Positions 15,888 through 64,000 of a stretch of 64,000 nucleotides of DNA are shown piece by piece (positions within the stretch are counted from its first letter, which is position 1; the number at the start of each line of letters is the position of its first letter). Both the position numbers and the translations under genes were made by a program. The notes under the pieces were generated by a model. That model did not search any database. It had not been told where the DNA came from and saw nothing but the letters and a program-made list of their open reading frames with translations. Origin of the DNA: Escherichia coli (lineage in GTDB: Bacteria; Pseudomonadota; Gammaproteobacteria; Enterobacterales; Enterobacteriaceae); assembly GCF_003018255.1 (NCBI RefSeq), contig NZ_CP027440.1; one strand, written 5' to 3'.

Positions 15888-16123
15888 ACTCTCTCCTTAT
15901 AACCAATTGTTCTTGTTTTGTTAACATTGATAACAATTCGGTCAGTCTGACAGAGGGCGTCCGCGAGTCGAAATGATTTATCTGAGGAAGAAAAGCCAAA
16001 AAAAGCATAAAAAAAGCGCAATAAGAAAACGTTTGCTATTTATTGCCGCAGGTCAATTCCCTTTTGGTCCGAACTCGCACATAATACGCCCCCGGTTTGC
16101 ACACCGGGAATCCAGGAGAGTTC

Positions 16124-42787: not shown

Positions 42788-42957
42788 TGAGTCACTCTCT
42801 ATGACAGATGTAATTAATTAAGCAGCATAATGATAATGTGGGAAGGTACACAGAAGTTTTACCCATCTTTACGCATTTGATCTGAAACAAGTTTCACAGC
42901 GGAGTCTCAGGTCATTAGGCAGTGATATAACGCCCTGAGAATTTCGACAGGCAAAAG

Positions 42958-42995: not shown

Positions 42996-43083
42996 TGGCG
43001 GAAGCGCAGAGATTCGAACTCTGGAACCCTTTCGGGTCGCCGGTTTTCAAGACCGGTGCCTTCAACCGCTCGGCCACACTTCC
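42996..43083 (-). tRNA. serT: tRNA-Ser (anticodon UGA), 88 nt including encoded CCA
   Basis: minus strand reads GGAAGTGTGGCCGAGCGGTTGAAGGCACCGGTCTTGAAAACCGG...GGTTCGAATCTCTGCGCTTCCGCCA; long variable arm; anticodon loop CUUGAAA. Confidence 0.95.
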
Positions 43084-43509
43084 GGAATGACGCGCACTAT
43101 AAACATCCCGATGCAGCGTGTAAACCCCTAATTTGTTTGTTTGCCTGAAAAACAGCCAAAAGTGCATTGATAGCGTGAAATAACAGCAGATTGATCATTT
43201 CATCACCATGAATTCCTTCTCTTTTACTCGTTTAGCAATCGGCTAAACATCCCCACCGCCCGGTAAAAAGAAAAATAGGTCCATTTTTATCGCTAAAAGA
43301 TAAATCCACACAGTTTGTATTGTTTTGTGCAAAAGTTTCACTACGCTTTATTAACAATACTTTCTGGCGACGTGCGCCAGTGCAGAAGGATGAGCTTTCG
43401 TTTTCAGCATCTCACGTGAAGCGATGGTTTGCCTTGCTACAGGGACGTCGCTTGCCGACCATAAGCGCCCGGTGTCCTGCCGGTGTCGCAAGGAGAAGAG
43501 ACGTGCGAT

Positions 43510-44628
43510 ATGAATAACGAGGAAACATTTTACCAGGCCATGCGGCGTCAGGGCGTTACCCGACGCAGCTTTCTCAAATATTGCAGTCTGGCTGCCACGT
43601 CGCTGGGATTAGGCGCGGGGATGGCACCAAAGATTGCCTGGGCGCTGGAGAACAAACCGCGCATTCCGGTGGTATGGATCCACGGTCTGGAATGCACCTG
43701 CTGTACCGAATCTTTTATCCGCTCCGCTCACCCGCTGGCAAAGGACGTCATCCTTTCCCTGATTTCCCTCGATTACGACGATACTTTGATGGCTGCCGCC
43801 GGAACCCAGGCGGAAGAAGTCTTTGAAGACATCATCACGCAATACAATGGCAAATATATCCTCGCAGTAGAAGGTAATCCGCCGCTGGGCGAGCAGGGGA
43901 TGTTCTGTATCAGCAGCGGTCGACCGTTTATTGAGAAACTCAAACGTGCCGCTGCCGGAGCCAGTGCGATTATCGCCTGGGGAACCTGCGCGTCCTGGGG
44001 CTGCGTGCAGGCCGCGCGACCCAATCCGACGCAGGCAACGCCTATCGACAAAGTCATCACCGACAAACCTATTATCAAAGTACCTGGCTGCCCGCCGATC
44101 CCGGATGTGATGAGCGCCATCATTACTTACATGGTGACCTTTGATCGCTTGCCAGATGTCGACAGAATGGGCCGTCCGTTGATGTTCTATGGTCAGCGTA
44201 TCCACGATAAATGCTATCGCCGTGCTCACTTCGACGCCGGAGAGTTCGTCCAGAGTTGGGATGATGACGCTGCCCGCAAAGGTTACTGCCTGTACAAAAT
44301 GGGCTGCAAAGGGCCTACCACCTATAACGCCTGTTCCTCCACACGCTGGAACGATGGCGTTTCCTTCCCGATCCAGTCAGGTCACGGCTGCCTGGGTTGT
44401 GCGGAAAATGGTTTCTGGGATCGCGGTTCGTTCTACAGCCGCGTGGTCGATATTCCACAAATGGGTACCCATTCCACCGCCGACACCGTCGGTTTAACCG
44501 CGCTTGGCGTGGTGGCAGCGGCTGTTGGTGTGCACGCAGTCGCCAGCGCCGTTGACCAGCGCAGGCGTCATAACCAGCAACCTACAGAAACCGAACATCA
44601 GCCAGGCAATGAGGATAAACAGGCATGA
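43510..44628 (+). CDS. hyaA: [NiFe] hydrogenase 1 small subunit, Tat signal
   Basis: ORF track 43483..44628; start at ATG 43510 giving [29 protein letters not shown] (twin-arginine motif). Confidence 0.95.
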
Positions 44629-46418
44629 GCACTCAGTACGAAACTCAGGGATACACCATCAACAATGCCGGACGCCGCCTGGTGGTCGACCCGATTACGC
44701 GCATTGAAGGCCACATGCGCTGCGAAGTGAATATTAACGATCAGAATGTGATCACCAATGCCGTCTCCTGCGGCACCATGTTTCGCGGGCTGGAGATCAT
44801 CCTGCAAGGGCGCGACCCGCGCGATGCGTGGGCGTTCGTTGAACGTATCTGCGGCGTCTGTACTGGCGTACACGCTCTGGCTTCGGTTTACGCCATCGAA
44901 GATGCCATCGGTATTAAAGTGCCGGACAACGCCAATATCATCCGCAACATTATGCTGGCAACGCTCTGGTGCCACGATCATCTGGTGCACTTCTATCAGC
45001 TTGCCGGGATGGACTGGATCGATGTGTTAGATGCGCTGAAAGCCGACCCGCGGAAAACCTCCGAACTGGCGCAAAGCCTCTCCTCATGGCCGAAATCATC
45101 CCCTGGCTATTTCTTCGACGTACAAAACCGCCTGAAGAAATTCGTTGAAGGCGGGCAGTTGGGGATCTTCCGCAATGGCTACTGGGGGCACCCGCAGTAC
45201 AAACTGCCGCCAGAAGCCAACCTGATGGGCTTTGCCCACTATCTCGAAGCTCTCGATTTCCAGCGTGAAATTGTCAAAATCCACGCGGTCTTTGGTGGTA
45301 AAAACCCGCATCCAAACTGGATTGTCGGCGGGATGCCTTGCGCCATTAACATTGACGAAAGCGGCGCAGTCGGGGCGGTCAATATGGAACGCCTGAACCT
45401 GGTGCAGTCGATCATTACCCGTACGGCGGATTTCATTAACAACGTGATGATCCCCGACGCCTTAGCCATCGGCCAGTTCAACAAACCGTGGAGCGAAATC
45501 GGCACGGGTCTTTCTGATAAATGTGTCCTCAGCTACGGCGCATTCCCGGATATTGCCAACGACTTTAGTGAGAAAAGTCTGCTGATGCCTGGCGGCGCGG
45601 TGATTAACGGCGACTTCAACAATGTGCTGCCAGTGGATTTGGTTGATCCGCAGCAGGTGCAGGAGTTTGTCGATCACGCCTGGTATCGTTATCCCAACGA
45701 TCAGGTCGGGCGTCATCCGTTCGATGGCATCACCGACCCGTGGTACAACCCCGGCGATGTCAAAGGCAGCGATACCAACATTCAGCAGCTGAATGAACAG
45801 GAACGCTACTCGTGGATCAAAGCGCCACGCTGGCGCGGTAATGCGATGGAAGTGGGGCCGCTGGCACGCACGTTAATCGCTTATCACAAAGGCGATGCGG
45901 CGACCGTTGAGTCGGTCGATCGCATGATGTCGGCGTTGAACCTGCCGCTTTCCGGCATCCAGTCAACGTTAGGCCGCATTTTGTGTCGCGCGCACGAAGC
46001 GCAGTGGGCCGCAGGCAAGTTACAATATTTCTTCGACAAGCTGATGACCAATCTCAAAAACGGCAATCTCGCCACCGCCTCCACTGAGAAGTGGGAACCA
46101 GCAACCTGGCCGACAGAGTGCCGTGGTGTCGGCTTTACCGAAGCGCCGCGCGGAGCGTTAGGCCACTGGGCCGCCATTCGCGATGGCAAGATTGATCTCT
46201 ACCAGTGCGTGGTGCCGACCACCTGGAACGCCAGCCCGCGCGATCCTAAAGGGCAAATTGGCGCTTATGAAGCGGCGCTGATGAACACCAAAATGGCGAT
46301 CCCCGAGCAACCGCTGGAGATCCTGCGTACTCTGCACAGCTTTGACCCGTGCCTCGCCTGTTCAACACACGTGCTGGGCGACGACGGTAGCGAGCTGATC
46401 TCCGTGCAGGTGCGTTAA
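44625..46418 (+). CDS. hyaB: [NiFe] hydrogenase 1 large subunit
   Basis: 597 aa; N-terminal RIEGH and C-terminal DPCLACSTH nickel-binding motifs. Confidence 0.96.
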
Positions 46419-46436
46419 CAGCGAAGGAGAATCATC

Positions 46437-47144
46437 ATGCAACAGAAAAGCGACAACGTTGTCAGTCACTATGTCTTTGAAGCACCCGTGCGGATATGGC
46501 ACTGGCTGACGGTGTTATGCATGGCGGTGTTGATGGTCACCGGTTACTTCATCGGCAAACCGCTGCCTTCGGTCAGCGGTGAGGCGACGTATCTGTTTTA
46601 CATGGGCTATATCAGGTTGATTCACTTCAGCGCCGGGATGATTTTTACCGTGGTCTTGCTGATGCGGATCTACTGGGCTTTTGTCGGCAATCGCTACTCA
46701 CGCGAGCTTTTCATCGTGCCAGTATGGCGCAAAAGCTGGTGGCAGGGCGTGTGGTATGAAATCCGCTGGTACCTGTTTCTGGCAAAACGTCCGAGTGCCG
46801 ATATAGGTCATAACCCCATCGCCCAGGCGGCGATGTTCGGCTATTTCCTGATGTCGGTATTTATGATCATCACCGGCTTTGCGCTCTACAGCGAACACAG
46901 CCAGTACGCTATTTTTGCGCCGTTTCGTTATGTGGTGGAATTTTTCTACTGGACGGGGGGCAACTCAATGGACATTCACAGCTGGCATCGGCTGGGGATG
47001 TGGCTGATTGGCGCGTTTGTGATCGGCCATGTCTACATGGCGCTGCGTGAAGACATTATGTCCGACGACACGGTGATCTCCACTATGGTCAACGGCTACC
47101 GTAGCCACAAATTTGGCAAAATAAGTAACAAGGAGCGTTCATGA
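46437..47144 (+). CDS. hyaC: hydrogenase 1 cytochrome b subunit
   Basis: 235 aa membrane protein with conserved His ligands. Confidence 0.93.
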
Positions 47145-47728
47145 GCGAGCAACGCGTGGTGGTAATGGGGCTGGGCAACCTGCTGTGGGCCGATGAAGGC
47201 TTCGGCGTGCGGGTGGCGGAACGGCTGTATGCCCATTACCACTGGCCCGAGGATGTGGAGATTGTCGATGGCGGTACTCAGGGACTGAACTTGCTGGGGT
47301 ATGTCGAAAGCGCCAGTCACTTGTTGATCCTCGATGCCATTGATTACGGGCTGGAACCCGGAACGCTGCGAACATATGCCGGAGAACGCATTCCGGCTTA
47401 TCTCAGCGCGAAGAAAATGAGTCTGCACCAGAACAGCTTCTCCGAAGTGCTGGCGCTGGCAGATATCCGCGGACATCTGCCAGCACATATTGCCCTCGTC
47501 GGTCTGCAACCCGCAATGCTCGACGACTACGGCGGTAGCCTGAGCGAACTGGCGCGGGAGCAACTGCCCGCTGCGGAACAGGCGGCGCTGGCGCAGCTGG
47601 CTGTGTGGGGAATTGTGCCGCAACCGGCTAATGAATCGCGCTGTCTCAATTATGACTGTCTGTCGATGGAAAATTACGAAGGCGTTCGCTTGCGCCAGTA
47701 CCGGATGACGCTGGAGGAGCAGGGATGA
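47141..47728 (+). CDS. hyaD: hydrogenase 1 maturation endopeptidase
   Basis: 195 aa; [16 protein letters not shown] motif. Confidence 0.93.
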
Positions 47729-48123
47729 GCAACGACACGCCATTTGATGCGTTGTGGCAACGAATGCTGGCGCGCGGCTGGACGCCGGTCAGTGAATCCC
47801 GCCTTGAGGACTGGCTCACGCAAGCGCCAGACGGCGTGGTGTTATTAAGCAGTGACCCGAAACGCACGCCAGAGGTCAGCGATAATCCGGTAATGATTGG
47901 CGAATTATTGCGCGAGTTTCCAGACTTTACATGGCAGGTAGCGATTGCTGACCTTGAGCAGAGCGAAGCCATCGGCGATCGCTTTGGCGTCTTTCGCTTT
48001 CCCGCCACATTAGTATTTACCGGCGGAAACTATCGCGGCGTGCTGAATGGTATTCACCCGTGGGCGGAACTGATAAACCTGATGCGCGGGCTTGTCGAAC
48101 CGCAGCAGGAGCGTGCCTCATGA
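47725..48123 (+). CDS. hyaE: hydrogenase 1 operon protein HyaE (thioredoxin-like chaperone)
   Basis: 132 aa; 4-nt overlaps with hyaD and hyaF. Confidence 0.9.
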
Positions 48124-48977
48124 GCGAAACTTTTTTCCATCTGCTGGGGCCAGGAACGCAACCGAACGATGACAGTTTCAGCATGAATCCACTGCCGATC
48201 ACCTGTCAGGTGAATGATGAACCGAGTATGGCGGCCCTGGAGCAATGTGCTCACAGCCCGCAGGTGATTGCGCTATTAAACGAGTTACAACATCAACTAA
48301 GCGAGCGCCAGCCGCCGCTGGGCGAGGTGCTGGCAGTCGATCTGTTAAATCTCAACGCCGACGATCGTCACTTTATCAATACGCTTCTCGGGGAAGGGGA
48401 AGTGTCAGTGCGCATTCAGCAGGCTGACGACAGTGAAAGTGAAATACAGGAGGCGATCTTCTGCGGATTATGGCGGGTGCGCAGACGTCGTGGCGAACAG
48501 TTGCTGGAAGACAAACTGGAGGCTGGCTGCGCACCGCTGGCGTTGTGGCAGGCGGCAACGCAAAACGTCTTGCCAACAGACTCGTTGCTACCGCCGCCCA
48601 TCGATGGCCTGATGAATGGCCTACCGTTGGCCCATGAATTACTGGCACATGTACGTAACCCCGACGCGCAGCCGCACAGCATTAATCTGACGCAATTGCC
48701 CATCAGCGAAGCTGACCGGCTTTTTCTCTCACGTCTCTGTGGGCCGGGAAATATTCAGATTCGTACCATTGGCTATGGCGAGAGCTATATCAACGCCACG
48801 GGGTTACGCCATGTCTGGCATTTACGCTGTACGGACACCTTAAAAGGCCCGTTAATGGAAAGTTATGAAATCTGCCCAATACCGGAAGTGGTGCTGGCAG
48901 CGCCAGAAGATTTGGTCGACTCTGCGCAGCGGCTTAGCGAGGTATGTCAGTGGCTGGCGGAAGGTGCACCGACGTAA
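48120..48977 (+). CDS. hyaF: hydrogenase 1 operon protein HyaF
   Basis: ORF track 48060..48977; start at ATG 48120 giving [18 protein letters not shown]. Confidence 0.9.
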
Positions 48978-49110
48978 AAAGACGGTAAGTATCGCTTTCA
49001 GTCTTATGAATATCGCAATCGGCGAATACCTCTGGTCGTAGAGTTTCAGGATAAAGAGGGAGATCTACCATTATCGGGTTATTTTTCTCTCTTCGCCTAC
49101 AGGAGTGCGC

Positions 49111-50655
49111 ATGTGGGATGTCATTGATTTATCGCGCTGGCAGTTTGCACTGACCGCGCTGTATCACTTTTTATTTGTACCCCTTACCCTGGGGCTGATT
49201 TTTTTGCTGGCTATCATGGAAACCATTTACGTGGTCACCGGCAAAACAATCTACCGCGATATGACGCGCTTCTGGGGTAAGCTCTTCGGTATCAACTTTG
49301 CTCTTGGCGTGGCTACCGGCCTGACCATGGAGTTTCAGTTTGGTACTAACTGGTCATTCTATTCCAACTATGTGGGCGATATTTTTGGCGCACCGCTGGC
49401 GATGGAAGCATTAATGGCCTTCTTCCTCGAATCCACCTTTGTCGGGCTGTTCTTCTTCGGCTGGCAGCGGCTGAATAAATACCAGCACCTGCTGGTGACG
49501 TGGCTGGTGGCGTTCGGTTCAAATCTCTCTGCATTGTGGATATTGAATGCCAACGGTTGGATGCAATACCCGACCGGTGCGCATTTTGATATCGACACCC
49601 TGCGTATGGAGATGACCAGTTTCAGCGAGTTGGTCTTTAACCCGGTCAGCCAGGTGAAATTTGTGCACACCGTAATGGCGGGCTACGTGACCGGGGCCAT
49701 GTTTATTATGGCGATCAGCGCCTGGTATTTACTGCGCGGACGGGAGCGCGATGTTGCATTACGCTCGTTTGCCATCGGTTCCGTCTTCGGTACTCTGGCG
49801 ATTATCGGCACGCTGCAACTCGGAGACAGTTCTGCGTATGAAGTCGCGCAAGTACAACCGGTAAAACTGGCGGCGATGGAAGGGGAGTGGCAAACGGAAC
49901 CTGCACCTGCACCGTTCCATGTGGTTGCCTGGCCGGAACAGGATCAAGAGCGTAACGCCTTTGCTATCAAAATTCCCGCGCTGCTAGGGATCCTCGCCAC
50001 TCACTCATTAGATAAACCCGTGCCGGGTCTGAAGAATTTGATGGCTGAAACCTACCCACGCTTGCAACGCGGACGTATGGCCTGGCTGTTAATGCAGGAA
50101 ATATCGCAAGGCAATCGAGAGCCGCATGTGTTGCAGGCATTCCGGGAGCTGGAAGGCGACCTGGGCTACGGCATGTTGCTCTCCCGCTATGCGCCGGATA
50201 TGAATCATGTCACAGCCGCACAGTACCAGGCGGCGATGCGTGGCGCGATACCTCAGGTTGCGCCGGTATTCTGGAGTTTCCGCATCATGGTGGGCTGTGG
50301 TTCCCTGCTGCTACTGGTGATGCTGATTGCGCTTGTCCAGACGCTGCGTGGCAAAATCGACCAGCATCGCTGGGTGCTGAAAATGGCGCTCTGGAGTTTG
50401 CCGCTGCCGTGGATTGCGATTGAAGCCGGGTGGTTTATGACCGAGTTTGGTCGTCAGCCGTGGGCGATACAGGACATCTTACCGACATACTCCGCGCACT
50501 CCGCCTTAACCACAGGACAACTGGCTTTCTCACTGATCATGATCGTAGGGCTTTACACCCTGTTCTTAATCGCCGAAGTCTACCTGATGCAGAAATATGC
50601 CCGTCTGGGGCCGAGCGCGATGCAGAGTGAACAACCGACGCAGCAACAGGGGTAA
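49111..50655 (+). CDS. appC: cytochrome bd-II ubiquinol oxidase subunit I
   Basis: ORF track 49105..50655; start giving [20 protein letters not shown]. Confidence 0.95.
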
Positions 50656-50666
50656 AGGAGAAAATC

Positions 50667-51803
50667 ATGTTTGATTATGAAACATTGCGCTTCATCTGGT
50701 GGCTGCTGATTGGCGTGATCCTGGTGGTCTTTATGATATCCGACGGATTTGACATGGGGATCGGCTGTCTGCTGCCGCTGGTGGCGCGTAATGATGATGA
50801 ACGTCGGATAGTGATAAACAGCGTTGGCGCGCACTGGGAAGGCAATCAGGTCTGGTTAATCCTCGCAGGTGGCGCATTATTTGCCGCCTGGCCCAGAGTG
50901 TATGCAGCGGCGTTTTCCGGCTTTTATGTGGCGATGATTCTGGTGCTGTGCTCGCTGTTCTTCCGCCCGCTGGCCTTTGATTATCGCGGAAAAATCGCCG
51001 ATGCACGCTGGCGTAAAATGTGGGATGCCGGACTGGTCATCGGCAGTCTGGTGCCGCCGGTAGTCTTCGGTATCGCCTTCGGCAACTTGCTGCTCGGCGT
51101 GCCGTTTGCCTTCACACCGCAATTACGCGTGGAATATCTCGGCAGTTTTTGGCAACTGCTGACGCCATTCCCTTTATTGTGCGGATTGCTCAGCCTTGGG
51201 ATGGTGATTTTGCAAGGTGGCGTCTGGTTACAACTGAAAACTGTTGGTGTGATTCATCTGCGTTCACAGCTGGCGACTAAACGCGCTGCACTACTGGTGA
51301 TGCTGTGCTTTTTGCTGGCGGGTTACTGGCTGTGGGTCGGTATTGATGGCTTTGTACTGCTCGCCCAGGATGCTAACGGTCCTTCCAATCCGTTAATGAA
51401 ACTGGTGGCAGTGCTACCTGGTGCCTGGATGAATAATTTCGTCGAATCGCCCGTTTTGTGGATCTTCCCGCTGCTGGGGTTCTTCTGCCCATTGCTGACG
51501 GTGATGGCGATTTATCGTGGTCGCCCGGGTTGGGGATTTTTGATGGCGTCATTGATGCAATTTGGCGTGATTTTCACGGCAGGCATCACGCTGTTCCCCT
51601 TTGTCATGCCGTCAAGCGTGAGTCCGATCTCCAGCCTGACGTTGTGGGACAGCACTTCCAGTCAGCTGACGCTGAGCATTATGTTGGTAATCGTGCTGAT
51701 ATTTTTGCCCATTGTGTTGCTCTACACTCTCTGGAGCTACTACAAAATGTGGGGGCGCATGACGACAGAAACTCTCCGCCGTAACGAAAACGAGCTGTAC
51801 TAA
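50667..51803 (+). CDS. appB: cytochrome bd-II ubiquinol oxidase subunit II
   Basis: 378 aa; [23 protein letters not shown]. Confidence 0.95.
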
Positions 51804-51815
51804 GGAGCAGGAACA

Positions 51816-51908
51816 ATGTGGTATTTACTTTGGTTCGTCGGCATTTTGTTGATGTGTTCGCTCTCCACCCTTGTGTTGGTATGGCTGGACCCGCGTCTGA
51901 AAAGTTAA
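51816..51908 (+). CDS. appX: cytochrome bd-II small subunit AppX (30 aa; below the ORF-track cutoff)
   Basis: read from DNA: MWYLLWFVGILLMCSLSTLVLVWLDPRLKS, preceded by aaggag RBS. Confidence 0.85.
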   Translation: MWYLLWFVGILLMCSLSTLVLVWLDPRLKS

Positions 51909-51987
51909 CGAACGTAAGCCTGATGTGGCGCATTAGCATCTCATCAGGCAATCAATAATGTCAGATATGAAAAGCGGAAACATATCG

Positions 51988-53286
51988 ATGAAAGCGATCT
52001 TAATCCCATTTTTATCTCTTCTGATTCCGTTAACCCCGCAATCTGCATTCGCTCAGAGTGAGCCGGAGCTGAAGCTGGAAAGTGTGGTGATTGTCAGTCG
52101 TCATGGTGTGCGTGCACCAACCAAGGCCACGCAACTGATGCAGGATGTCACCCCAGACGCATGGCCAACCTGGCCGGTAAAACTGGGTTGGCTGACACCG
52201 CGCGGTGGTGAGCTGATCGCCTATCTCGGACATTACCAACGCCAGCGTCTGGTGGCTGACGGATTGCTGGCGAAAAAGGGCTGCCCGCAGCTTGGTCAGG
52301 TCGCGATTATTGCTGATGTCGACGAGCGTACCCGTAAAACAGGCGAAGCCTTCGCCGCCGGGCTGGCACCTGACTGTGCAATAACCGTACATACCCAGGC
52401 AGATACCTCCAGTCCCGATCCGTTATTTAATCCCCTAAAAACTGGCGTTTGCCAACTGGATAATGCGAACGTGACTGACGCGATCCTCAGCAGGGCAGGA
52501 GGGTCAATTGCTGACTTTACCGGGCATCGGCAAACGGCGTTTCGCGAACTGGAACGAGTGCTTAATTTTCCGCAATCAAACTTGTGCCTTAACCGTGAGA
52601 AACAGGACGAAAGCTGTTCATTAACGCAGGCATTACCATCGGAACTCAAGGTGAGCGCCGACAATGTCTCATTAACCGGTGCGGTAAGCCTCGCATCAAT
52701 GCTGACGGAGATATTTCTCCTGCAACAGGCACAAGGAATGCCGGAGCCGGGGTGGGGAAGGATCACTGATTCACACCAGTGGAACACCTTGCTAAGTTTG
52801 CATAACGCGCAATTTTATTTACTACAACGCACGCCAGAGGTTGCCCGCAGTCGCGCCACCCCGTTATTGGATTTGATCATGGCAGCGTTGACGCCCCATC
52901 CACCGCAAAAACAGGCGTATGGTGTGACATTACCCACTTCAGTGCTGTTTATTGCCGGACACGATACTAATCTGGCAAATCTCGGCGGCGCACTGGAGCT
53001 CAACTGGACGCTTCCAGGTCAGCCGGATAACACACCGCCAGGGGGTGAACTGGTGTTTGAACGCTGGCGTCGGCTAAGCGATAACAGCCAGTGGATTCAG
53101 GTTTCGCTGGTCTTCCAGACTTTACAGCAGATGCGTGATAAAACGCCGCTGTCATTAAATACGCCGCCCGGAGAGGTGAAACTGACCCTGGCAGGATGTG
53201 AAGAGCGAAATGCGCAGGGCATGTGTTCGTTGGCAGGTTTTACGCAAATCGTGAATGAAGCACGCATACCGGCGTGCAGTTTGTAA
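51988..53286 (+). CDS. appA: periplasmic phytase / acid phosphatase (histidine acid phosphatase family)
   Basis: ORF track 51958..53286; start at ATG 51988 giving MKAILIPFLSLLIPLTPQSAFA signal; RHGVRAP active-site motif. Confidence 0.95.
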   Translation: MKAILIPFLSLLIPLTPQSAFAQSEPELKLESVVIVSRHGVRAPTKATQLMQDVTPDAWPTWPVKLGWLTPRGGELIAYLGHYQRQRLVADGLLAKKGCPQLGQVAIIADVDERTRKTGEAFAAGLAPDCAITVHTQADTSSPDPLFNPLKTGVCQLDNANVTDAILSRAGGSIADFTGHRQTAFRELERVLNFPQSNLCLNREKQDESCSLTQALPSELKVSADNVSLTGAVSLASMLTEIFLLQQAQGMPEPGWGRITDSHQWNTLLSLHNAQFYLLQRTPEVARSRATPLLDLIMAALTPHPPQKQAYGVTLPTSVLFIAGHDTNLANLGGALELNWTLPGQPDNTPPGGELVFERWRRLSDNSQWIQVSLVFQTLQQMRDKTPLSLNTPPGEVKLTLAGCEERNAQGMCSLAGFTQIVNEARIPACSL

Positions 53287-53291
53287 TGCAT

Positions 53292-53322
53292 AAAAAAGAG
53301 CATTCAGTTATCTGAATGCTCT
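53292..53322 (+). terminator. rho-independent terminator of the app operon
   Basis: stem agagcattcag-ttat-ctgaatgctct flanked by A6. Confidence 0.7.
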
Positions 53323-53353
53323 GAGGCTGATGACAAACGAAGAACTGTCTAAT

Positions 53354-53390
53354 GCGTAGACCGGAAAAGGCGTTCACGCCCCATCCGGCC
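53354..53390. repeat. single REP element
   Basis: gcgtagaccggaaaaggcgttcacgccccatccggcc, REP-like palindrome between convergent appA and etk. Confidence 0.7.
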
Positions 53391-53405
53391 ACCTTACCTT
53401 CAGTT

Positions 53406-55586
53406 TTACTCTTTCTCGGAGTAACTATAACCGTAATAGTTATAGCCGTAACTGTAAGCGGTGCTGGCGCGTTTAATCACACCATTGAGGATTGCGCCTT
53501 TAATATTAACGCCAGCCTGTTCCAGACGCTGCATTGACAAGCTCACCTCTTTGGCGGTGTTCAAGCCAAAACGCGCAACCAGCAGGCTGGTGCCGACAGA
53601 GCGTCCCACGACCGCAGCATCGCTCACCGCCAGCATCGGCGGCGTATCGACAATCACCAGATCGTAATGGTCGTTCGCCCATTCCAGTAATTGACGCATC
53701 CGATCGCGCATCAGCAGTTCAGACGGGTTAGGTGGCACCTGACCGCGAGTAATCACATCAAAGCCTCCTTTGCTAAAATGCTGGATCACTTTGTTGAGCT
53801 CATCTTTACCTGCCAGATATTCCGACAAGCCATGTTCATTACTCACGGTAAACAGGTTATGCGAATAACCACGGCGTAAGTCGGCATCAATAAATAACAC
53901 TTTTTGATCGGACTGGGCGATCACCGCTGCCAGAGTTGAACTGACAAACGTTTTACCACTGTCTGGCGTCGCACCGGTGATCATCAGAATATTATTCTCA
54001 GTCTCCATCATAGCGAAATGCAGACTGGTTCGTAGCGCACGTACGGCCTCCACAGCAGAATCCGCCGGGTTATCCACCGCCAGGAAGGGGATATTTTTAG
54101 TACGATGGCGCTGCTGATTAGAAAATAAATTTTTCTTACGCAGACGGGTACGTTTATCCAGCCACTCGGACATTGGGATAGTGGCATAAACGCTGATGCC
54201 GTGCTCTTCCAGTTGTTCCGGGGCTTCTACACCACGACGCAACATCGCACGCGCCAGCACGGCACCCACCGAAATAAACAGGCCAAGAATAAAACCAAGC
54301 ACCACATTCAACGCTTTTTTCGGTTTCACTGGCTGCGGCTGAGTGACTGCCGGGTCGATAATCCGCACGTTACCAATCGCACTGGATTTCGAAATACTCA
54401 ACTCCTGCTGGCGGTTAAGTAATTGCAGATATACCGCACGGCCCGCTTCTACGTCACGGCTTAAACGCAATACTTCCTGTTGAGTGGAAGGCATTGCCGA
54501 TACCCGCTTATTCAGGCGTTTGCGTTCTTGCTCCAGCGTCTGGCGTTTTTCCAGTAGCGCACGATAAGTTGGGTGATCTTTCTTGTACAGCTGGGAGATC
54601 TCTGCCTCGCGGAAGGTCAGCTCATTGAGTTGATTATCAACGTTAACAATCTGCTCAAGAACGGCTTTGGCTTCCAGGTTAAGGTCAACCGAATCGCGCT
54701 GTTGGCGATAAACGTTGAGTTTTTCTTCCGCCTGGTCCAGCTCGCTGCGTACTTCAGGCAACTGGCGCTGTAAGAACTCAAGGCTTTGTGAATCCTGCGC
54801 CGCCTGGCGAGCGATATTCTGTTGCAAATAGTTGTTAGCGATGCTGTTCAGAATACGGGTAATCAACTGGGGATCATCACCGGTCATGGTAAGTTCCAGC
54901 ATCCCGCTTTCTTTACTGCGTTCGCTAACGGTAAAGGTTTCCTGCAGGGCGTTAATCGCTTCCAGTTCGGTGCGCTGGCTCAGGACAAACTGTGTTCCTG
55001 CTTTGGCCTTAATGTCCGCGATAGTCAGCGCAACGCCGTCTTTTTCCAGACGCTGGCCGACCATACCATTGACGGTGAACCCTTCACCTTCCAGCGTATA
55101 GTGGCCGTTTTCCCCAACTGTGAGTGTCAGTTGCTGATCCTGACCATTCAGTTGTGGGATGTGCATCCAGCTGATCGCCAGCTCACCTGGTTTCTCTTTG
55201 GTTAATCTCGCCCAGCCGCGACCCACAATAGGAAAATACTTCTGCTCAACCATGTCGCGCAGATTCAGTTCAGCAATGGTTTTACCGAGAATCATGCGCG
55301 ATTGCAGCAGTTGGATCTCCGGTGCTGACTCGGGCGATGAGTTAGGGATCATATCGCTCAGGCCGCTGAGAATGGCGTTGCCCTGTTTCTGCTCAACCTG
55401 GACCAGAGTATCTGCCTGATAAATTGGCGTGCTTAACAGCGAGTAAGCGACAGCGATCAGCGTGAACAACGCGGTCACGCTGACAATAAACTTACGGTGA
55501 TCCCATAACTCGCCGACCAGACGAAGCAGATCGATCTCATTTTCCTGAGTGCTGCCTGGTGGCGTATTCATATTTTTAGTTGTCAT
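53406..55586 (-). CDS. etk: BY-kinase (protein tyrosine autokinase / capsule co-polymerase) Etk
   Basis: 726 aa; Wzc-like with C-terminal Tyr-rich tail (YSYGYNYYGYSYSEKE) and Walker A (GATPDSGKT). Confidence 0.93.
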   Translation of the reverse strand: MTTKNMNTPPGSTQENEIDLLRLVGELWDHRKFIVSVTALFTLIAVAYSLLSTPIYQADTLVQVEQKQGNAILSGLSDMIPNSSPESAPEIQLLQSRMILGKTIAELNLRDMVEQKYFPIVGRGWARLTKEKPGELAISWMHIPQLNGQDQQLTLTVGENGHYTLEGEGFTVNGMVGQRLEKDGVALTIADIKAKAGTQFVLSQRTELEAINALQETFTVSERSKESGMLELTMTGDDPQLITRILNSIANNYLQQNIARQAAQDSQSLEFLQRQLPEVRSELDQAEEKLNVYRQQRDSVDLNLEAKAVLEQIVNVDNQLNELTFREAEISQLYKKDHPTYRALLEKRQTLEQERKRLNKRVSAMPSTQQEVLRLSRDVEAGRAVYLQLLNRQQELSISKSSAIGNVRIIDPAVTQPQPVKPKKALNVVLGFILGLFISVGAVLARAMLRRGVEAPEQLEEHGISVYATIPMSEWLDKRTRLRKKNLFSNQQRHRTKNIPFLAVDNPADSAVEAVRALRTSLHFAMMETENNILMITGATPDSGKTFVSSTLAAVIAQSDQKVLFIDADLRRGYSHNLFTVSNEHGLSEYLAGKDELNKVIQHFSKGGFDVITRGQVPPNPSELLMRDRMRQLLEWANDHYDLVIVDTPPMLAVSDAAVVGRSVGTSLLVARFGLNTAKEVSLSMQRLEQAGVNIKGAILNGVIKRASTAYSYGYNYYGYSYSEKE

Positions 55587-55605
55587 CGTATTTTATAAAC
55601 TCAAA

Positions 55606-56052
55606 TTACCGGCTGAGGCGCTTCGCCCATTCCTGACTGGCGCGCTCCAACATACCGTAGACATGTTCAAATGCGTCCTGACTTTTACGATAGGGATCCG
55701 GGATCTCTTTCTGTTCCAGCCATTGCCCAAACAGCATTGTCTTCCCGCGGACCTCGGGAGCGATTGCGGTAACCTGAGCAATATGTTCCGACTCCATTGC
55801 CAGAATCAGATCGTAATTTCGTGCCATCTCAGCAGTGAGCTTACGTCCGGCATGTCCTTCAAGAGATACGCCATGATTTGCGGCAACATCTGCTGCTGTC
55901 GCATCTGCAGGGTGTTTTACCAGACCATGAACACCTGCCGATTTGACTTTTACGCCTGGCAGACGTTTACGCAGCAAGCGCTCGCCAATGGGCGAACGGC
56001 AAATGTTGCCGGTACAAACCACCAGGATTGAGTTAAATTTTAGTTGGGCCAT
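55606..56052 (-). CDS. etp: low-molecular-weight phosphotyrosine protein phosphatase Etp
   Basis: ORF track 55606..56133; start giving [24 protein letters not shown] (CX5R P-loop). Confidence 0.92.
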
Positions 56053-57179
56053 GTTTGAATCCACCGTGAAGTCTCTGTCAGGTCGTGCACCCCGGAAATC
56101 GTCGGTACCAGCAGAGAAATCACACGGTTCCAACGAGCCAGCGGCGCGGTAGTGACATAAACAATGTCGTAAGGTTCAAGCTGGAATTCCGTTCCGAGTA
56201 TCATTGCCGATGCGTCCTTCGCATTCAGCTGATAAATATTGGCGATTTTGCCATTCTGCTTGTTTTGCGTTGCACGAATAACAAAAATCCCCGTCGCATC
56301 AGCGACATCCTGATTCATACCCTCAGCGTTACCCAGCGCTTCCGCCAGGGTCATACCGCTGCGGTCCATTTTCAGCGTGCTCTGTTTACCCACTTCACCC
56401 ATCACGAAGACTTTCAGATCATCGTTGCGCGGAATAAATAAAATATCGCCCGGGTGCAGCAGTTTGTTCTGGCGCAAGTCGCCACGCTGCATCAGCGCAT
56501 AGAGGTTCACTTTGGTCTTTACGCCATTCTGGGTGAGCACCACGTTGCGCCAGTCTGCATCTGCGGTCAGACCGCCCGCGGCGTTAATCGCATCCATGAT
56601 GGTCAGAGGAATATTGGTAATCGGCTGCTGACCCGATTTGCTGACTTCGCCGGTGACGTACGCTTTTTGCGAGCGGAACGCCGCGACGCTGACATCGACT
56701 TGCGGGCTTTCAATGACTGAATCCAGACGCGCTGTAATCTCGTTGCGTACCTGGGTAAGCGTTTTCCCGGCCACTTTCAGGCGACCAATATAAGGGTAGA
56801 AAATTGCACCATCAGCGTTAACCCAGTTGCCGGTATCACTGGCGCTACGGTATTGCCCTGCGGGGGTGGTTAGTTCCGGGTGATCCCAGACCGTAACCAT
56901 CAACACATCCCCAATGCCGATACGATATTCATAGTTCGCGATTTGCTGCTCCAGCTCCGGATTAGCCTGCGACATAATCGGTTTGGCGCGCAGCTGATCA
57001 ATCAATCCTGGCGTGACGGGATAGATATTGACCATTTTGTCCAGGTCATACTGATTGTCAGGTAGTTCAATGACATCCTTGTTACTGGTCGATAAATTCT
57101 GACCAGGAACAAGGGTACATGCTGTCAAAGACAGAACAGCCAATGTCAGTACCGAAAACTTAAAAATGTTCTTTTTCAT
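56040..57179 (-). CDS. gfcE: Wza-like outer-membrane polysaccharide export lipoprotein GfcE
   Basis: ORF track 56040..57200; start giving [21 protein letters not shown] lipobox. Confidence 0.92.
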
Positions 57180-57224
57180 TGGTTTATATTTATCAGTCAA
57201 TGTAATGTTATGAATTACGTCAGG

Positions 57225-59321
57225 TTATTGTCCAACCGGTACTTCTCGCTCTGCCGTCATTGGATAGAGCTGGTATTTACGTGACAGCATTTGTCCACCA
57301 TCACGCGTCAATGGTGTCCACGAAACCACCGCGCGGTTGCGGTTAGGTCCAATGGTCATCAAGTCGAACGGAATCGAGATATAAAAACCTTTACTAAAGC
57401 CGCCTTCGCCGTAGTCATCTTTTGATACGTTACTGATTGCCGCCCATACCCCTACTGCCACGCCGCTGTCAAAGCGTTTGGCGACGTCGATCGTTGCACC
57501 TTTATCTTTTGCCAGATATTGCCCAACGCTAAGTTTCATCAGTACGCCATTGAGCGTCGGCGGGTTCCAGTAAGCCGTCACGAAACCTGTTGGCGTAGAA
57601 TAATCGGTGAAGCGCATCATGTTGTCCCAGTCACGCTGCTTCACGTAGTTAACGTCCACACCCAGCGCCCAGCTGGCATCTAGCGGGCGATAAAGCAGCT
57701 CGGAACCGACACCGGCATACATCGTTTCCAGATAACCGCCATACACCTGGCCATAGAAACCGTTGCCTAAGTCGGCAAAGTAGTTCGCTTGCAAGTTGTT
57801 GAGATAAACGTCATTGCGAACGTAATCACGGATATGCGTGCGCACGCGGGGCAGGGTAGAGTCCGCGGGTAATAGCGAAGACTTAAACTTGTCGTAGTTA
57901 TTGTAAATATTGGTGAAAATACCGCCATCAAGCAGCAGGTGGTCGGTAAACCAGTAGCGGGCGCTGGACATCAGCCCCAGCTGGAACATATAGAAATCTT
58001 CCGGGCCGCCCAGCGACTGTGAAAGTGTTGGGTTGAAAGAGTAGCTAAAGCGATCTTCACGAATACGGTAGCCCCGACCAAAGGCAGAAAGATCTTCAGC
58101 TTCAACACGTTGTTGTTGCAGTGGCTCTGATTGACCAGGCGCTGTACCGGCCAGTTGTTTGCGCAGGCTGGCTACGTCGGTTTCGGTAGTCACCATCGCC
58201 ATATGCTCGCGCTTTTGCGTCACACTAATCTTCTCAACGCCTTGCGGCAGGTTATTCACCAGAATCCGGTTGGCACGATCGACCGCTTCGCGAGAGTCAC
58301 GGTATTTGTATTGCTGACCAGACATATACAGCGTCTTATCGCGTAGCTGAATTTCTGGCGCGTCAAAGCCCGCGTTATACTTCAGGGCGGTAAGTTGGTT
58401 TGCTACCGTGGTGTACTGCAATCCTTCAGATTCCGGCGCAGGTTGATATGCCGGTTTTGGCGTATCGCGCAGGGCAGGGCGCAGATCGTTGAAATTGGTC
58501 CGTAACGTGAAGCCAAACATCAACGTGTTACCGCGTTCATAACTCAGGTTGAGATCTGCCCAACTGGCAGCGCGATAAACTGCGCCGACGTTGAAATGGC
58601 TTGCCTGCGGCAATTTGCCCGCAAAATCATTCTGGTAATTGTTGCCATCGTATTCGAGTTTCAGACGCAGAGGATTCCACGGCGTTTGATACTCAATACC
58701 GCCCAAAATAGAGGCTGGACCACGAAAGATATCGCTAAAGCTGATATCTCCCGCATCGTGAGACTCTGCGCGATGGCAATATTTATCGCTTACCCGACAA
58801 AACGGGTTGGTAATATTGCCCGCATTACCGGCGTAGCCCCAGGCCATCCCGAGGGTGAAATCGAACGGGCCCGCTTGCTTGCTGGCCACCAAATATTCAC
58901 CGTCAAACAGACCCGTACCAGCAATATCACGTTTACCAAACGCCACTTGCGGTAGCCAGTAACCTTCTTCCCACAGGCGAAGTTTAAAATCGAAAGATTT
59001 GTCTTTGTATGACTGATCGCCGCTGAAATCTTCCCACTGGCTATATTTGCGTGTGCGCACATCCGTATAACGAATGGTGCCTTCCAGCCATGGGAACAGC
59101 GCCACGGAGGTGGAGTAGAAACGGTATTGATCGTTATCCCGGTAGTTTACGCTGAATTCACCTTCCGGTGCGATGCGCGCATTTGGCATCTGCAACAATC
59201 CTGTGCCGCCAAAGTCTGATTGCGACGAACCCAGCGGATCCGGATAGGTTAATACTTCAGCATGACAGGCACTGGAGACGGCAATGGCCAGGCAGCTTAA
59301 AAGATAAGAGTTCTTCTTCAT
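57225..59321 (-). CDS. gfcD: outer membrane beta-barrel protein GfcD (YmcA)
   Basis: 698 aa with signal peptide; sequence recognised. Confidence 0.9.
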
Positions 59322-60067
59322 CAGTCAGGAACACGTTGCGTTAAAACAGACACAATCTGGTCATTTAAATCAGCATATTTTTCGGGCAGTACATGCGCAG
59401 AAAAGCCTAACCAAAGCTGGCTGCCAGGCGGTGGTTCCACATGTCTTTTATTCCACAGGGCAACAGGGGCGACGACAGCCTCACCCTCAGGCGTAATCAC
59501 CATAACGTTATTCTTGTCCGCGCCTGCAAGACGGGTGTGATCTTGCAGATAATCGGTAACGCTACGGCCTGCCAGCCAGGGCAATTGCCCAGCCCCAGAA
59601 ACCGCACCTAGCAGAGTAATAGTCACCGGACGCTGTACGGTATAGAGCGTATAGTCCCCGACCAGCGGGGGATTGCTGTTCTCATCCACTCGTACAAAAT
59701 CAGGGTCCAGTTTGACCGGTAAGCGACCAGTGATATTGAGATTGAGTAACTGCTGGCGCACGGATTTAATCGTTGCCACCACATCGTCGTCAGCTTCTGC
59801 TTCCCAGGAAGCAAGCTGTGCCATGACATGTTGGTAGTCTTTAAGCGCTTTAGCTTTCGCCGCAGAGTCGGTCAGCAAGGCACCAGGCCACCAGAGGCGA
59901 TCGCGCAGTTGCGGTTGTGTCACCAACTGGACAACATTTTCCACGGGGCCAACGGAAAGTGTCTGTTGTTCGCCAGGCAGATAAATAGTCACCGTTCCTT
60001 GCGCAAAGGCATGGGGTGTCATTACGTAAAGTACGCTGGCAATGAAATACGACTGTAATTTATTCAT
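59321..60067 (-). CDS. gfcC: periplasmic protein GfcC (YmcB)
   Basis: 248 aa with signal peptide; operon position. Confidence 0.9.
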
Positions 60068-60708
60068 GGTGCGGGTTTAAGAAACGTCATTTCTACGGGA
60101 ATAACCCCTGCGCCTAACATTTGCCGACTTTGACGAACCTGGCCACTAGCCGAATCGACCCAGAATGTGTTTTGCCACTGTTTTTCTGGCAGCGTGGAAG
60201 TCACCTCTTCCTGCCAGACATTACACAGCACATCGCGACCCGCAATATTCAGCGTCTCTAATCCAGCAAAGGAAAAAGTGGAACTCAGGGTCGCAGAGCG
60301 AAAATGGTTGTCTTCACTCCAGAGAATATCGCGCGTCCAGCGGCTGCCGTCTTTTATTGCCAGCGCGTTACGCAGAGGGTCCTGCCCGGAATTTGTCACT
60401 TCCAGCAGATTATTATTAAGTTTGACGGTTTTTAAAAGACGTCCATTGTGGGTAACCAGCATGGCGTTATCCTGGGATAACCATTTGCTTTGTTCTTGTT
60501 CTATATATCCCAGTACCACAAAGATTCGTTGCCCTTCATTAAGGCGTAAATACATCGTGGAATAAGGCAACGCCTGGATCTGCTGATCCGCTACGGTGAT
60601 ATCCTGATTATCGAAAAGGCTGGCGCGAAATGTATCGACCATACTTTGCTGGCTGTGCGTACATCCCGCAAGAAATAGTGCGAAAATCGATAAAATAAGA
60701 GGGCGCAC
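60064..60708 (-). CDS. gfcB: lipoprotein GfcB (YmcC)
   Basis: 214 aa; lipobox LAGCTHS. Confidence 0.9.
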   Translation of the reverse strand: MRPLILSIFALFLAGCTHSQQSMVDTFRASLFDNQDITVADQQIQALPYSTMYLRLNEGQRIFVVLGYIEQEQSKWLSQDNAMLVTHNGRLLKTVKLNNNLLEVTNSGQDPLRNALAIKDGSRWTRDILWSEDNHFRSATLSSTFSFAGLETLNIAGRDVLCNVWQEEVTSTLPEKQWQNTFWVDSASGQVRQSRQMLGAGVIPVEMTFLKPAP

Positions 60709-60814
60709 CTTTAATCCTTGAAAGGTTAATTAAAAAAATGCAAATCTCTAAAGCCCGGTACGAATATCGCAACCGGGTATCATTTAACTTTAATTTTGAC
60801 GCGTTAAAGCAGTA

Positions 60815-61120
60815 TTAGCGCGTAGTGGACGTGGTGGTTGAGGTGTTATGAGAACCGCCATCGCCACTGTCATTTGCTGCAACTACTGCCAACGTCGCCA
60901 CACCAACAGCCGTTGCCACACCGACAACCGTCGCCGTGCCGACAGCGCCAGCAGCCACGCCACCAGTGGTAGCAGCAGTCGTGGTTGCACCTGTAGTGGT
61001 CGTTGTGGTGCCAGTAGTACCCGTCGTTGCCTCAGTCCCGTTTGCTGCTTCAGGGGCAGCAAATGCAGCTGGCGTCGTCAACATGAAGGCCATAAGGATT
61101 GCAGAAAGCTTGTGTTTCAT
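60815..61120 (-). CDS. gfcA: Thr-rich secreted protein GfcA (YmcD)
   Basis: ORF track 60815..61138; start giving MKHKLSAILMAFMLTTPAAFA; Thr/Gly/Ala/Val low-complexity body. Confidence 0.88.
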   Translation of the reverse strand: MKHKLSAILMAFMLTTPAAFAAPEAANGTEATTGTTGTTTTTTGATTTAATTGGVAAGAVGTATVVGVATAVGVATLAVVAANDSGDGGSHNTSTTTSTTR

Positions 61121-61560
61121 AACTTTTCCTTTATTCATCGCATGGACAATACGTACGCTTGAGATCAGGATTATCTACTTTGAGTATAACATCCTTGTGA
61201 AATCTCCCTTTCCTCATACCGCCAGCACTATATACTGCGGGTGGGAAAGGCGCGCAGAGGGAAATATAAGATTGTTAACTATTCCCCTCTGGAAATACGA
61301 CTTGTGAGCATAAGATAAATCTTAGCAAAATACAAATTAAAGATAAGAAAATTGTTAAGAAAGCTATTAACTATTGTTGGTAATATAGTTTCAAGTGGTA
61401 CTATAACTGGCTGTTAAGTGGCATTTATAACTATTAGGTGCAGAGATATTCGCTTAAATGGATTTGTTGCCCGGTGAAAAAGTAACTTGCGTTATAATTT
61501 ATGGTGTTGACTATTGAGCTATTCCAATAAAACCAGCCAACTTTAAACAAGCAACTCATA

Positions 61561-61773
61561 TTAAGAGAGATAAACATTTGCCGCTGTTGGTCCTCGCAGG
61601 CCATTTACGCGGCAAAATTCCACGCGTAATCCTGGTATAAGCACTTCTGCGTCGCGGGGAGTGAATGCGGAAATATGGACCTGGACTTCTTTACGACCGT
61701 CGGAGGGGATAATGAATCCTTTGCCGCTTTTGCGATCAAAGGTTTTGACAATTCCTGTCATTTTACGGGACAA
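61561..61773 (-). CDS. cspH: cold-shock-domain protein CspH
   Basis: 70 aa; [23 protein letters not shown]. Confidence 0.92.
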
Positions 61774-62058
61774 ACAAATTCCTTACTGAAAATACTGCGC
61801 TGCACTATACGGGGTTAATAAAATAAAGCCAGCGATATTTAAGACCGCCGGACGGCTAAAATAAAATTTGCTTAATCTCAATTATCATGCGTTAATAGCT
61901 GCGTCGGTTTGAAAGACAGACAGCATACAAAGTAGTTTACTAAAGCAGTTCTCATTATCAGGCATTATCCCCTTCTTTTGAGTCTCTCTCCTGAACACTA
62001 AGTAGTTTCTGTACTAAAGCCCTGTTTGCCGAAAGGCCCAAAATGAAGGAAGTAAAAT

Positions 62059-62271
62059 ATGTCTAATAAAATGACTGGTTTAGTAAAATGGTTTAACGCA
62101 GATAAAGGTTTTGGCTTTATCACTCCTGATGATGGCAGCAAAGACGTTTTCGTCCATTTCACCGCCATCCAGAGCAATGAATTCCGCACGCTGAACGAAA
62201 ATCAGAAAGTTGAATTTTCTATTGAGCAGGGGCAACGTGGTCCCGCGGCAGCGAACGTTGTTACGCTCTAA
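62059..62271 (+). CDS. cspG: cold shock protein CspG
   Basis: 70 aa; [23 protein letters not shown] (RNP1 motif). Confidence 0.95.
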
Positions 62272-62470
62272 GGTTGCCGTTATTACTCCACATCTCCATT
62301 TCCGCTGTCCATGTTGTCATGGTTCACAGTACCGCACATCGGCATTCGATGTGACGGAGCGAAATCCTTTAGGGGCAAAGTGTATTTTTTGTAAATCGAC
62401 GATGATCACCTTTGATAACGTCGCGCTGCAAATACGCACTGACCATGCGCCGCTGGATTTCACAAAATAA
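62237..62470 (+). CDS. ymcE: small Cys-rich protein YmcE; start codon uncertain (non-ATG)
   Basis: ORF track 62210..62470; contains ...[21 protein letters not shown]...; no in-frame ATG near 5' end, GTG at 62237 chosen. Confidence 0.5.
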
Positions 62471-62664
62471 TATCAGGCTCCCTCGTGGAGCCTTTTTTAT
62501 ATCTGCCTTATTTTTCTTCAACGCTGTATGTATAGTAAGCGATAACCTGTTGATTATTGAATCTTTCGGGGAGATGGCTTATAACATTTCTTACCTGACC
62601 AGGGTACCGGGAACCAACACCTTACTGGCGTGTTGCTGTCTTTCAAGACCAGAAGAGGTTAACA

Positions 62665-62838
62665 GTGAATATTGAAGAGTTAAAAAAACAAGCCGAAACG
62701 GAAATCGCTGACTTTATCGCGCAAAAAATCGCCGAGCTGAACAAGAATACAGGGAAAGAAGTCTCTGAAATTCGCTTCACCGCACGAGAAAAAATGACCG
62801 GGCTTGAAAGTTATGATGTCAAAATCAAAATAATGTGA
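62665..62838 (+). CDS. gnsA: GnsA (57 aa; GTG start; below the ORF-track cutoff)
   Basis: read from DNA: (M)NIEELKKQAETEIADFIAQKIAELNKNTGKEVSEIRFTAREKMTGLESYDVKIKIM. Confidence 0.85.
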   Translation: MNIEELKKQAETEIADFIAQKIAELNKNTGKEVSEIRFTAREKMTGLESYDVKIKIM

Positions 62839-62885
62839 TTTTGTGAACATCACCCGTGCGAGGTGATGTTCCGCTTGTTGCTAAT

Positions 62886-63959: not shown

Positions 63960-64000
63960 GATTTTGCCAGTCCGTTAAGTTGCATACCAAATGCCACTAT

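Follow-up and report, generated by a model that had tools for sequence, protein, structure and literature searches.

The tandem hydrogenase 1 and cytochrome bd-II operons of Escherichia coli (hyaABCDEF-appCBXA), intact in a 64,000-nucleotide stretch of contig NZ_CP027440.1

Hydrogenase 1 of Escherichia coli, an oxygen-tolerant, membrane-bound uptake hydrogenase of the nickel-iron type, is built from the subunits HyaA and HyaB, anchored by the cytochrome b HyaC; it is exported by the twin-arginine translocation (Tat) route, oxidizes H2 and hands the resulting electrons over to the pool of quinones. Several proteins take part in its maturation: HyaD trims a 15-residue C-terminal extension from HyaB, and HyaE and HyaF assist. 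The same order of subunits, cytochrome b, endopeptidase, a HoxO/HyaE-like protein and a HoxQ/HyaF(HupH)-like protein is found in the Knallgas operons of Cupriavidus necator (hoxKGZMLOQR...) and Rhizobium (hupSLCDFGHI...), which add further maturation genes (hoxL, the rubredoxin gene hoxR, hoxT and hoxV) and are not known to have a cytochrome bd oxidase after them. Cytochrome bd-II, composed of AppC, AppB and AppX, re-oxidizes quinol with O2, while AppA, a periplasmic acid phosphatase/phytase, is encoded last in this second operon. Here we examine the corresponding locus in a 64,000-nucleotide (nt) stretch of E. coli DNA (contig NZ_CP027440.1 of assembly GCF_003018255.1; the whole stretch is called the window), where the hya and app genes lie at positions 43510-53286. 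We are close to certain that this is the canonical E. coli hyaABCDEF-appCBXA locus, fully intact and arranged as two adjacent operons on the same strand, each with its own promoter and both switched on together. The locus is already known, and nothing in it is new; it is an unremarkable, textbook part of anaerobic and acid-stress respiration in E. coli, and its intactness matters little beyond quality control.

Ten uninterrupted open reading frames (ORFs) on the + strand make up the locus, each with an ATG start and without internal stop codons, as seen both in the ORF listing and by direct translation. The first operon begins with hyaA (43510-44628, 372 residues), for the hydrogenase 1 small subunit with its Tat signal, and continues with hyaB (44625-46418, 597 residues) for the large subunit and hyaC (46437-47144, 235 residues) for the b-type cytochrome membrane anchor. 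It is completed by hyaD (47141-47728, 195 residues), encoding the maturation endopeptidase, hyaE (47725-48123, 132 residues), a hydrogenase-1 operon protein whose annotated role is that of a putative HyaA chaperone, and hyaF (48120-48977, 285 residues), a hydrogenase expression protein of the HupH/HoxQ type. The second operon holds appC (cbdA; 49111-50655, 514 residues) and appB (cbdB; 50667-51803, 378 residues) for cytochrome bd-II subunits 1 and 2, followed by the 30-codon appX (cbdX; 51816-51908) for the accessory subunit and by appA (51988-53286, 432 residues) for the periplasmic phosphatase/phytase. The gene starts given here are the reference-annotated ones; mechanical ORF calling runs hyaA, hyaF, appC and appA upstream to earlier starts.

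The locus in E. coli K-12 MG1655 (b0972-b0980 and b4592; NC_000913.3, 1032139-1041915) has the same ten genes in the same order, on the same strand and with the same lengths, and the four ATGA overlaps recur there, as do the spacers of 18, 133, 11, 12 and 79 nt. Between them, 225 of the 9540 coding nucleotides differ (2.4%), with 18 amino acid substitutions in total. HyaA, AppB and AppX are identical to their K-12 counterparts (appX also at the DNA level, 100%), HyaB carries one substitution, and HyaF has four at equal length. That gene lengths are equal, and that the 225 nucleotide differences translate into no more than 18 amino acid changes, points to strong purifying selection on intact genes. 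The most divergent gene is hyaC, where 5.2% of nucleotides differ and yet a single amino acid changes, a pattern consistent with a separate recombination import; the other genes diverge by 1.3-3.2%, and appX by 0%. Outside the coding sequence, the window differs from K-12 at five positions in the hya promoter region and by one broken base pair in the hairpin between appX and appA.

The genes of the window map one to one onto the RefSeq annotation of both E. coli SC418 and K-12 MG1655, which was the comparison proposed by the first-pass annotation of this DNA. That annotation had placed the hya and app operons in tandem on one strand, had called the locus intact and had included appX; gene identities and order match the K-12 and RefSeq annotation, family models and solved structures, all ten genes are full length relative to K-12 with neither stops nor frameshifts, and its boundaries, overlaps and spacer length were correct in every figure, with starts chosen as in the reference annotation and not as the longest ORFs. 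Exact boundaries, 4-nt overlaps and a 30-codon gene can thus be recovered by a first-stage reader from raw sequence. The arrangement is also common across the species. Of 5426 complete E. coli genomes, 5425 have a match to an 11-kilobase (kb) query over the locus, and in 5411 of the 5426 at least 80% of that query is covered at one site, annotated as hyaA-F, appC, appB, cbdX and appA.

Protein identities were assigned with the curated cut-offs of NCBIfam, with Pfam, and by sequence matches to the PDB. The NCBIfam cut-offs are exceeded by nine of the ten proteins, through eight equivalog models and, for HyaA, the subfamily model TIGR00391 (675 bits). HyaA also carries the Tat signal domain TIGR01409 at residues 16-45, with the Tat motif TRRSFLK at residue 17. 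Cysteines stand at precursor positions 62, 64, 65, 160, 165 and 194, which, given a 45-residue signal, correspond to positions 17, 19, 20, 115, 120 and 149 of the mature protein. Mature Cys19 and Cys120 are the two extra proximal-cluster cysteines of the small subunit, which in structural work on hydrogenase 1 are the signature of O2 tolerance; this pair is present among the six proximal-cluster cysteines of HyaA. For HyaB, the equivalog model NF007550 gives 1443 bits (cut-off 1101), and residues 1-582 match chain L of PDB 3UQY, the large chain of hydrogenase 1, whose crystal chains end at 582. The motifs that would ligate the nickel-iron centre are present as RICGVC at residue 74 and DPCLACSTH at 574-582, the latter followed by a 15-residue tail, and HyaB also matches PDB 3RGW (HoxG; E-value 2.7e-233). 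HyaC (NF007551, 537.6 bits, cut-off 442), HyaD (NF007616, 440 bits, cut-off 261) and HyaE (NF008563, 282.7 bits, cut-off 210; Pfam HyaE, E-value 6e-46) all match their equivalog models, while HyaF matched no NCBIfam model and was assigned through Pfam HupH_C (E-value 6.5e-43). Taken together, a Tat-bearing small subunit, the ligand motifs, a cytochrome b, an endopeptidase and the HyaE and HyaF accessory proteins identify the first operon, at the level of sequence, as that of hydrogenase 1. It differs from the oxygen-tolerant, membrane-bound nickel-iron hydrogenase operons of Cupriavidus necator and Rhizobium in that the rubredoxin gene, hoxR there, was not found in the window.

The products of the second operon are equally well matched. 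AppC exceeds the cut-off of the bd-II equivalog NF011609 (1201.5 bits, cut-off 1025) and falls below that of the bd-I model (796 bits, cut-off 968), and it matches PDB 7OSE chain A over its full length; AppB scores 832.8 bits against the bd-II equivalog NF011602 (cut-off 681). The gene for AppX begins 12 nt past appB, preceded by AAGGAG, and its product matches the equivalog NF011333 (80.8 bits, cut-off 57) and, over residues 1-30, PDB 7OSE chain C, in keeping with structural work that confirmed AppX as a subunit of bd-II (PMC8585947). By these scores AppC and AppB fit the models of bd-II rather than bd-I, and AppX is the small, single-helix third subunit. The paralogous bd-I oxidase of E. coli, cydABX, likewise has three subunits and encodes the tiny third one right after subunit II. 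AppC aligns with CydA (6RKO chain A) at an E-value of 4e-218 and AppX only weakly with CydX (E-value 0.009), but appCBX is unlike cydABX in its locus and its regulation. AppA, finally, reaches 842 bits with the equivalog NF007552 (cut-off 585) and matches PDB 1DKL over residues 23-432. It has a hydrophobic N-terminus (MKAILIPFLSLLIPLTPQSAFA), as expected of a signal peptide, and the catalytic motifs RHGVRAP at residue 38 and HD at residue 325, which mark it as a histidine acid phosphatase/phytase. All proteins of the locus other than HyaC to HyaF have a solved structure.

Could the locus nonetheless belong to a divergent lineage in which it is decaying or no longer works, with some of its genes turned into pseudogenes? 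Its 98.0-98.5% identity to the best of the 5426 E. coli genomes, where the flanks reach 99.5-99.9%, might be read in this way, and one Escherichia lineage, Escherichia sp. MOD1-EC7003 (discussed below), did lose its app operon. We regard decay as extremely improbable, however, because the ten genes are full length without stops or frameshifts, only 18 of the 225 nucleotide differences alter an amino acid, the motifs are intact, and the appC promoter spacer is identical to that of K-12. The divergence itself has the form of a recombination mosaic. Compared with E. coli JNE23-011 (NZ_AP045067.1), the closest complete genome, the window is 99.9% identical over positions 1-25000 and 99.5% over 53200-64000, while the hya-app block is 98.2% identical. 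Differences per kb number 0-1 up to about 30.9 kb and again beyond about 59 kb, and 2-47 in between. An origin in an organism other than E. coli, which a best identity of 98% might also have suggested, was rejected along with decay, given flanks that are 99.5-99.9% identical to JNE23-011 and genes that are all intact. The pattern is that of an ordinary mosaic of homologous recombination, which leaves gene integrity unaffected. The divergent tract spans about 27 kb (about 30900-58500) and runs from ompA/sulA through hya, app, etk and gfc; within it, strain SC418 is the near-identical match for hyaC-hyaD (46000-47500).

The upstream regions of the two operons bear on how they are controlled. The intergenic region between serT and hyaA (43084-43509, + strand), which contains the hya promoter and regulatory sequences, is 426 nt long with five differences from K-12, and YdeO-box hexamers lie in it as an inverted pair at 43176 (TGAAAT) and 43197 (ATTTCA). 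The spacer between hyaF and appC (48978-49110, + strand), which contains the appC promoter region, is 100% identical to K-12, whereas neighbouring coding DNA differs by 2-3%. From the hyaF stop to the appC start it measures exactly 133 nt, the distance given by the first-pass annotation for an app operon downstream of hya on the same strand. The literature retrieved handles hyaABCDEF and appCBA (appCBXA) as separate transcription units. Chromatin immunoprecipitation (ChIP) on arrays detected YdeO peaks both in the spacer that separates yccA from hyaA and in the one upstream of appC; lacZ fusions of hyaA and of appC likewise respond to this regulator, and the same study describes the appC promoter as dependent on sigma-S and induced by AppY (PMC4222967). 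Similarly, ChIP sequencing placed AppY peaks at hyaA and at appC, with both operons massively induced (PMC10057817). These separate AppY- and YdeO-bound promoters in front of hyaA and appC argue for two co-regulated operons in tandem, and the same literature bears out the description of the locus as a known acid, anaerobic and stationary-phase respiratory module (PMC4222967; PMC10057817).

One set of observations weighs against a strict separation of the two operons. A pattern scan of the + strand from hyaF to appC found no hairpin with a T run behind it, although Rho-dependent termination is invisible to such a scan, and the RNA of the spacer folds no better than shuffled sequences (z-score -0.18). 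Lacking a terminator-like site, the spacer suggests that the strict picture of two operons may be incomplete. In its strongest form, this argument would make all ten genes one transcription unit, in which polymerase from the hya promoter reads through the spacer into appCBXA and the appC promoter only adds to the output. The open, unstructured spacer is what such a unit would have, appCBX lies downstream of hya on the same strand in three genera, and both gene sets rise together when YdeO or AppY is over-produced. We nevertheless think a single unit unlikely. According to the ChIP peaks and reporter fusions, appC has an autonomous promoter directly in front of it (PMC4222967; PMC10057817). In addition, when YdeO is over-produced the log10 ratio from quantitative reverse-transcription PCR is 2.64 for appC vs 1.66 for hyaF (PMC4222967); appC thus rises about ten-fold more than hyaF, beyond what read-through alone could supply, and its own promoter dominates at least under YdeO over-production. 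In Edwardsiella, moreover, about 340 nt separate the last gene of the hya operon from appC, and our literature searches for a hya-app co-transcript or a hyaF terminator returned nothing relevant; the retrieved papers describe no hya-app transcript.

Two operons with separate promoters therefore remain our preferred description, to which a weaker form of the same idea can be added. Since no intrinsic terminator is present and the order of hya followed by appCBX is kept in Escherichia, Edwardsiella and Citrobacter, partial read-through may occur, and we put forward only tentatively, from the sequence of the spacer and the conserved gene order, that a fraction of hya transcripts might run on into appCBXA. 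If this is true, read-through would physically link synthesis of the H2-oxidizing enzyme to that of the oxidase consuming its electrons, giving a built-in respiratory chain from H2 to O2 under microaerobic acid stress. It would extend the known regulation and not amount to a new kind of system.

The hya genes are packed tightly. The junctions hyaA/B, hyaC/D, hyaD/E and hyaE/F all read ATGA in the window, each a 4-nt overlap in which the ATG of the downstream gene overlaps the stop codon of the upstream one, and the 18-nt gap between hyaB and hyaC, which is identical to K-12, contains AAGGAG. Shine-Dalgarno-like motifs that would serve hyaB (GAGGA), hyaD (AAGGAG), hyaE (GGAGGAG) and hyaF (CAGGAG) lie inside the gene upstream of each. 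We compared these junctions with those of loci encoding relatives of HyaF, taking one genome per species and rebuilding the gene models. This gave 11 usable loci, six from Escherichia (E. albertii, E. whittamii, two Escherichia sp. and two labelled E. coli), four from Edwardsiella and one from Citrobacter; one of them has a truncated hyaA, and another lacks the app genes. Salmonella was not among the genera returned by the peptide-pattern scan. At every junction that could be scored across these three genera, hyaA/B is at -4 nt, hyaB/C at +18, hyaC/D at -4 and appC/B at +11, with appB/X at +12 or +13, and a Shine-Dalgarno motif is kept upstream of every start. Constancy of these five spacings across three genera indicates conservation rather than chance. 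Tight linkage is thus kept up, and nowhere more strictly than between hyaA and hyaB, whose products pair stoichiometrically.

From the overlaps, the first-pass annotation had drawn the conclusion that translation of the hya genes is coupled. The overlaps stand, and conserved junctions with conserved Shine-Dalgarno motifs favour the proposal; coupling as such is a plausible and reasonable reading of this geometry. Most likely, ribosomes finishing one hya gene would start on the next at the ATGA overlap, before which a Shine-Dalgarno motif lies inside the upstream gene, and such stop/start coupling would keep the synthesis of subunits and maturation factors linked. Several points count against it. 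The hyaD/E and hyaE/F junctions are tight but variable in other genera (-7 or +5, and +3 or -1, respectively), which means that these two junctions can do without an overlap of exactly 4 nt; independent initiation is also conceivable, since every overlapped start comes with a Shine-Dalgarno motif of its own; and the literature searches retrieved no experiment on translational coupling in hya. Overlaps of 4 nt are, moreover, common in the neighbourhood, as at pqiB/pqiC and gfcC/gfcB, and are not remarkable in themselves. The ATGA overlaps could then be a by-product of compaction and of drifting starts and stops, with translation of each gene starting independently at a conserved Shine-Dalgarno motif of its own, and with the genes retained even where the hyaD/E and hyaE/F junctions have shifted. 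We judge this improbable, if still worth weighing, given that the hyaA/B and hyaC/D overlaps are constant across three genera despite 4-27% protein divergence of the neighbouring genes. All of the variants, furthermore, lie within 7 nt of abutting and would still permit termination-reinitiation, and HyaA pairs with HyaB in a stoichiometric heterodimer (PDB 3UQY), which is the classic situation for coupling.

The comparison with relatives also places the pairing of hydrogenase and oxidase in time. The order of hya followed by appCBX is kept in 10 of 10 loci that retain app genes, across three genera, and appX was found in all ten, suggesting that the adjacency of hydrogenase and oxidase and most junction spacings predate the genus Escherichia. 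The four Edwardsiella species (E. piscicida, E. anguillarum, E. hoshinae and E. ictaluri; loci L009-L012 of our set) have hyaABCDEF followed by appC, appB and appX on the same strand, as in the window, and share with it the hyaA/B (-4), hyaB/C (+18), hyaC/D (-4), appC/B (+11) and appB/X (+12) spacings as well as the Shine-Dalgarno motifs. In contrast to the window, their hyaE starts with GTG and overlaps hyaD by 7 nt, hyaE/F is at +3 or -1, the non-coding gap before appC is longer, and appA is missing.

A gene for a 65-residue rubredoxin (Pfam PF00301, E-value 8.5e-22) lies between hyaF and appC in all four Edwardsiella species (L010, 10851-11048; L009, 6772-6966; L011, 6941-7135; L012, 10851-11024). 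In L010, where the junction was seen directly, the gene begins 8 nt before the hyaF stop. No trace of a remnant of this gene was found in the window, in the other Escherichia loci or in Citrobacter sp. On2M.

At the other end of the locus, appA does not follow appCBX in L009-L013, that is, in Edwardsiella and Citrobacter sp. On2M, and among the loci compared it occurs in Escherichia only. With this distribution, the phytase gene seems to have joined the operon later. The app genes can also be lost. In Escherichia sp. MOD1-EC7003 (L005), hyaA-F are intact, but all that is left of the app operon are three pieces at 10843-11160: 135 nt from appC, 47 nt from appA and the final ~125 nt of the latter gene. 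Cytochrome bd-II and phytase have thus been lost naturally while hydrogenase 1 was kept, which implies that the hya and app units are evolutionarily separable. A further HyaF fragment, 99% identical to the protein of the window, occurs on a 250-base-pair contig (L015) labelled Ruminococcus sp. 210702-SL.1.03; E. coli DNA contaminating that assembly is the most likely source.

Two hairpins lie at the end of the locus. The first, a stem-loop in the spacer between appX and appA (51918-51949, + strand), sits in an 85-nt stretch that folds at -23.6 kcal/mol (z-score -3.1, vs -5.1 for the K-12 version). Relative to K-12 it carries a C to U and a G to U change, one in each arm, which leave a U-U mismatch, so that the pair is broken and not compensated. 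With no U tract after it, this stem-loop is not a canonical terminator. The second (53297-53322) lies between the convergent genes appA and etk and has an 11-base-pair stem; with a T run on the - strand it is terminator-like on the etk side, while on the + strand it folds with a z-score of -4.1 and no U tract after it. Also between appA and etk, a 5-nt insertion (ACCTT) relative to both K-12 and SC418 occupies 53391-53395, just past the stop codon of etk.

Two antisense ORFs were considered as genes and rejected, one of 206 residues opposite hyaA (43609-44229, - strand) and one of 215 residues opposite hyaD (47096-47743, - strand). Each occupies the frame that runs directly antiparallel to the sense codons and remains open only because the sense genes avoid the codons TTA, CTA and TCA. 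They are broken in other species, and we regard them as shadows of codon usage.

An Rfam scan detected no RNA family inside 43510-53286. Elsewhere in the window it identified the naRNA4 family, which is derived from repetitive extragenic palindromic (REP) elements, at 11527-11605, the PyrD leader at 16056-16129, and a thermoregulator of the cspA type at 61903-62325 that covers cspG and its 5′ untranslated region. The tRNA-Ser(UGA) gene serT (42996-43083, - strand), identified by ARAGORN and Rfam, immediately precedes the hya promoter region, and a 2-nt insertion (GT) is found at 42922-42923, between yccA and serT.

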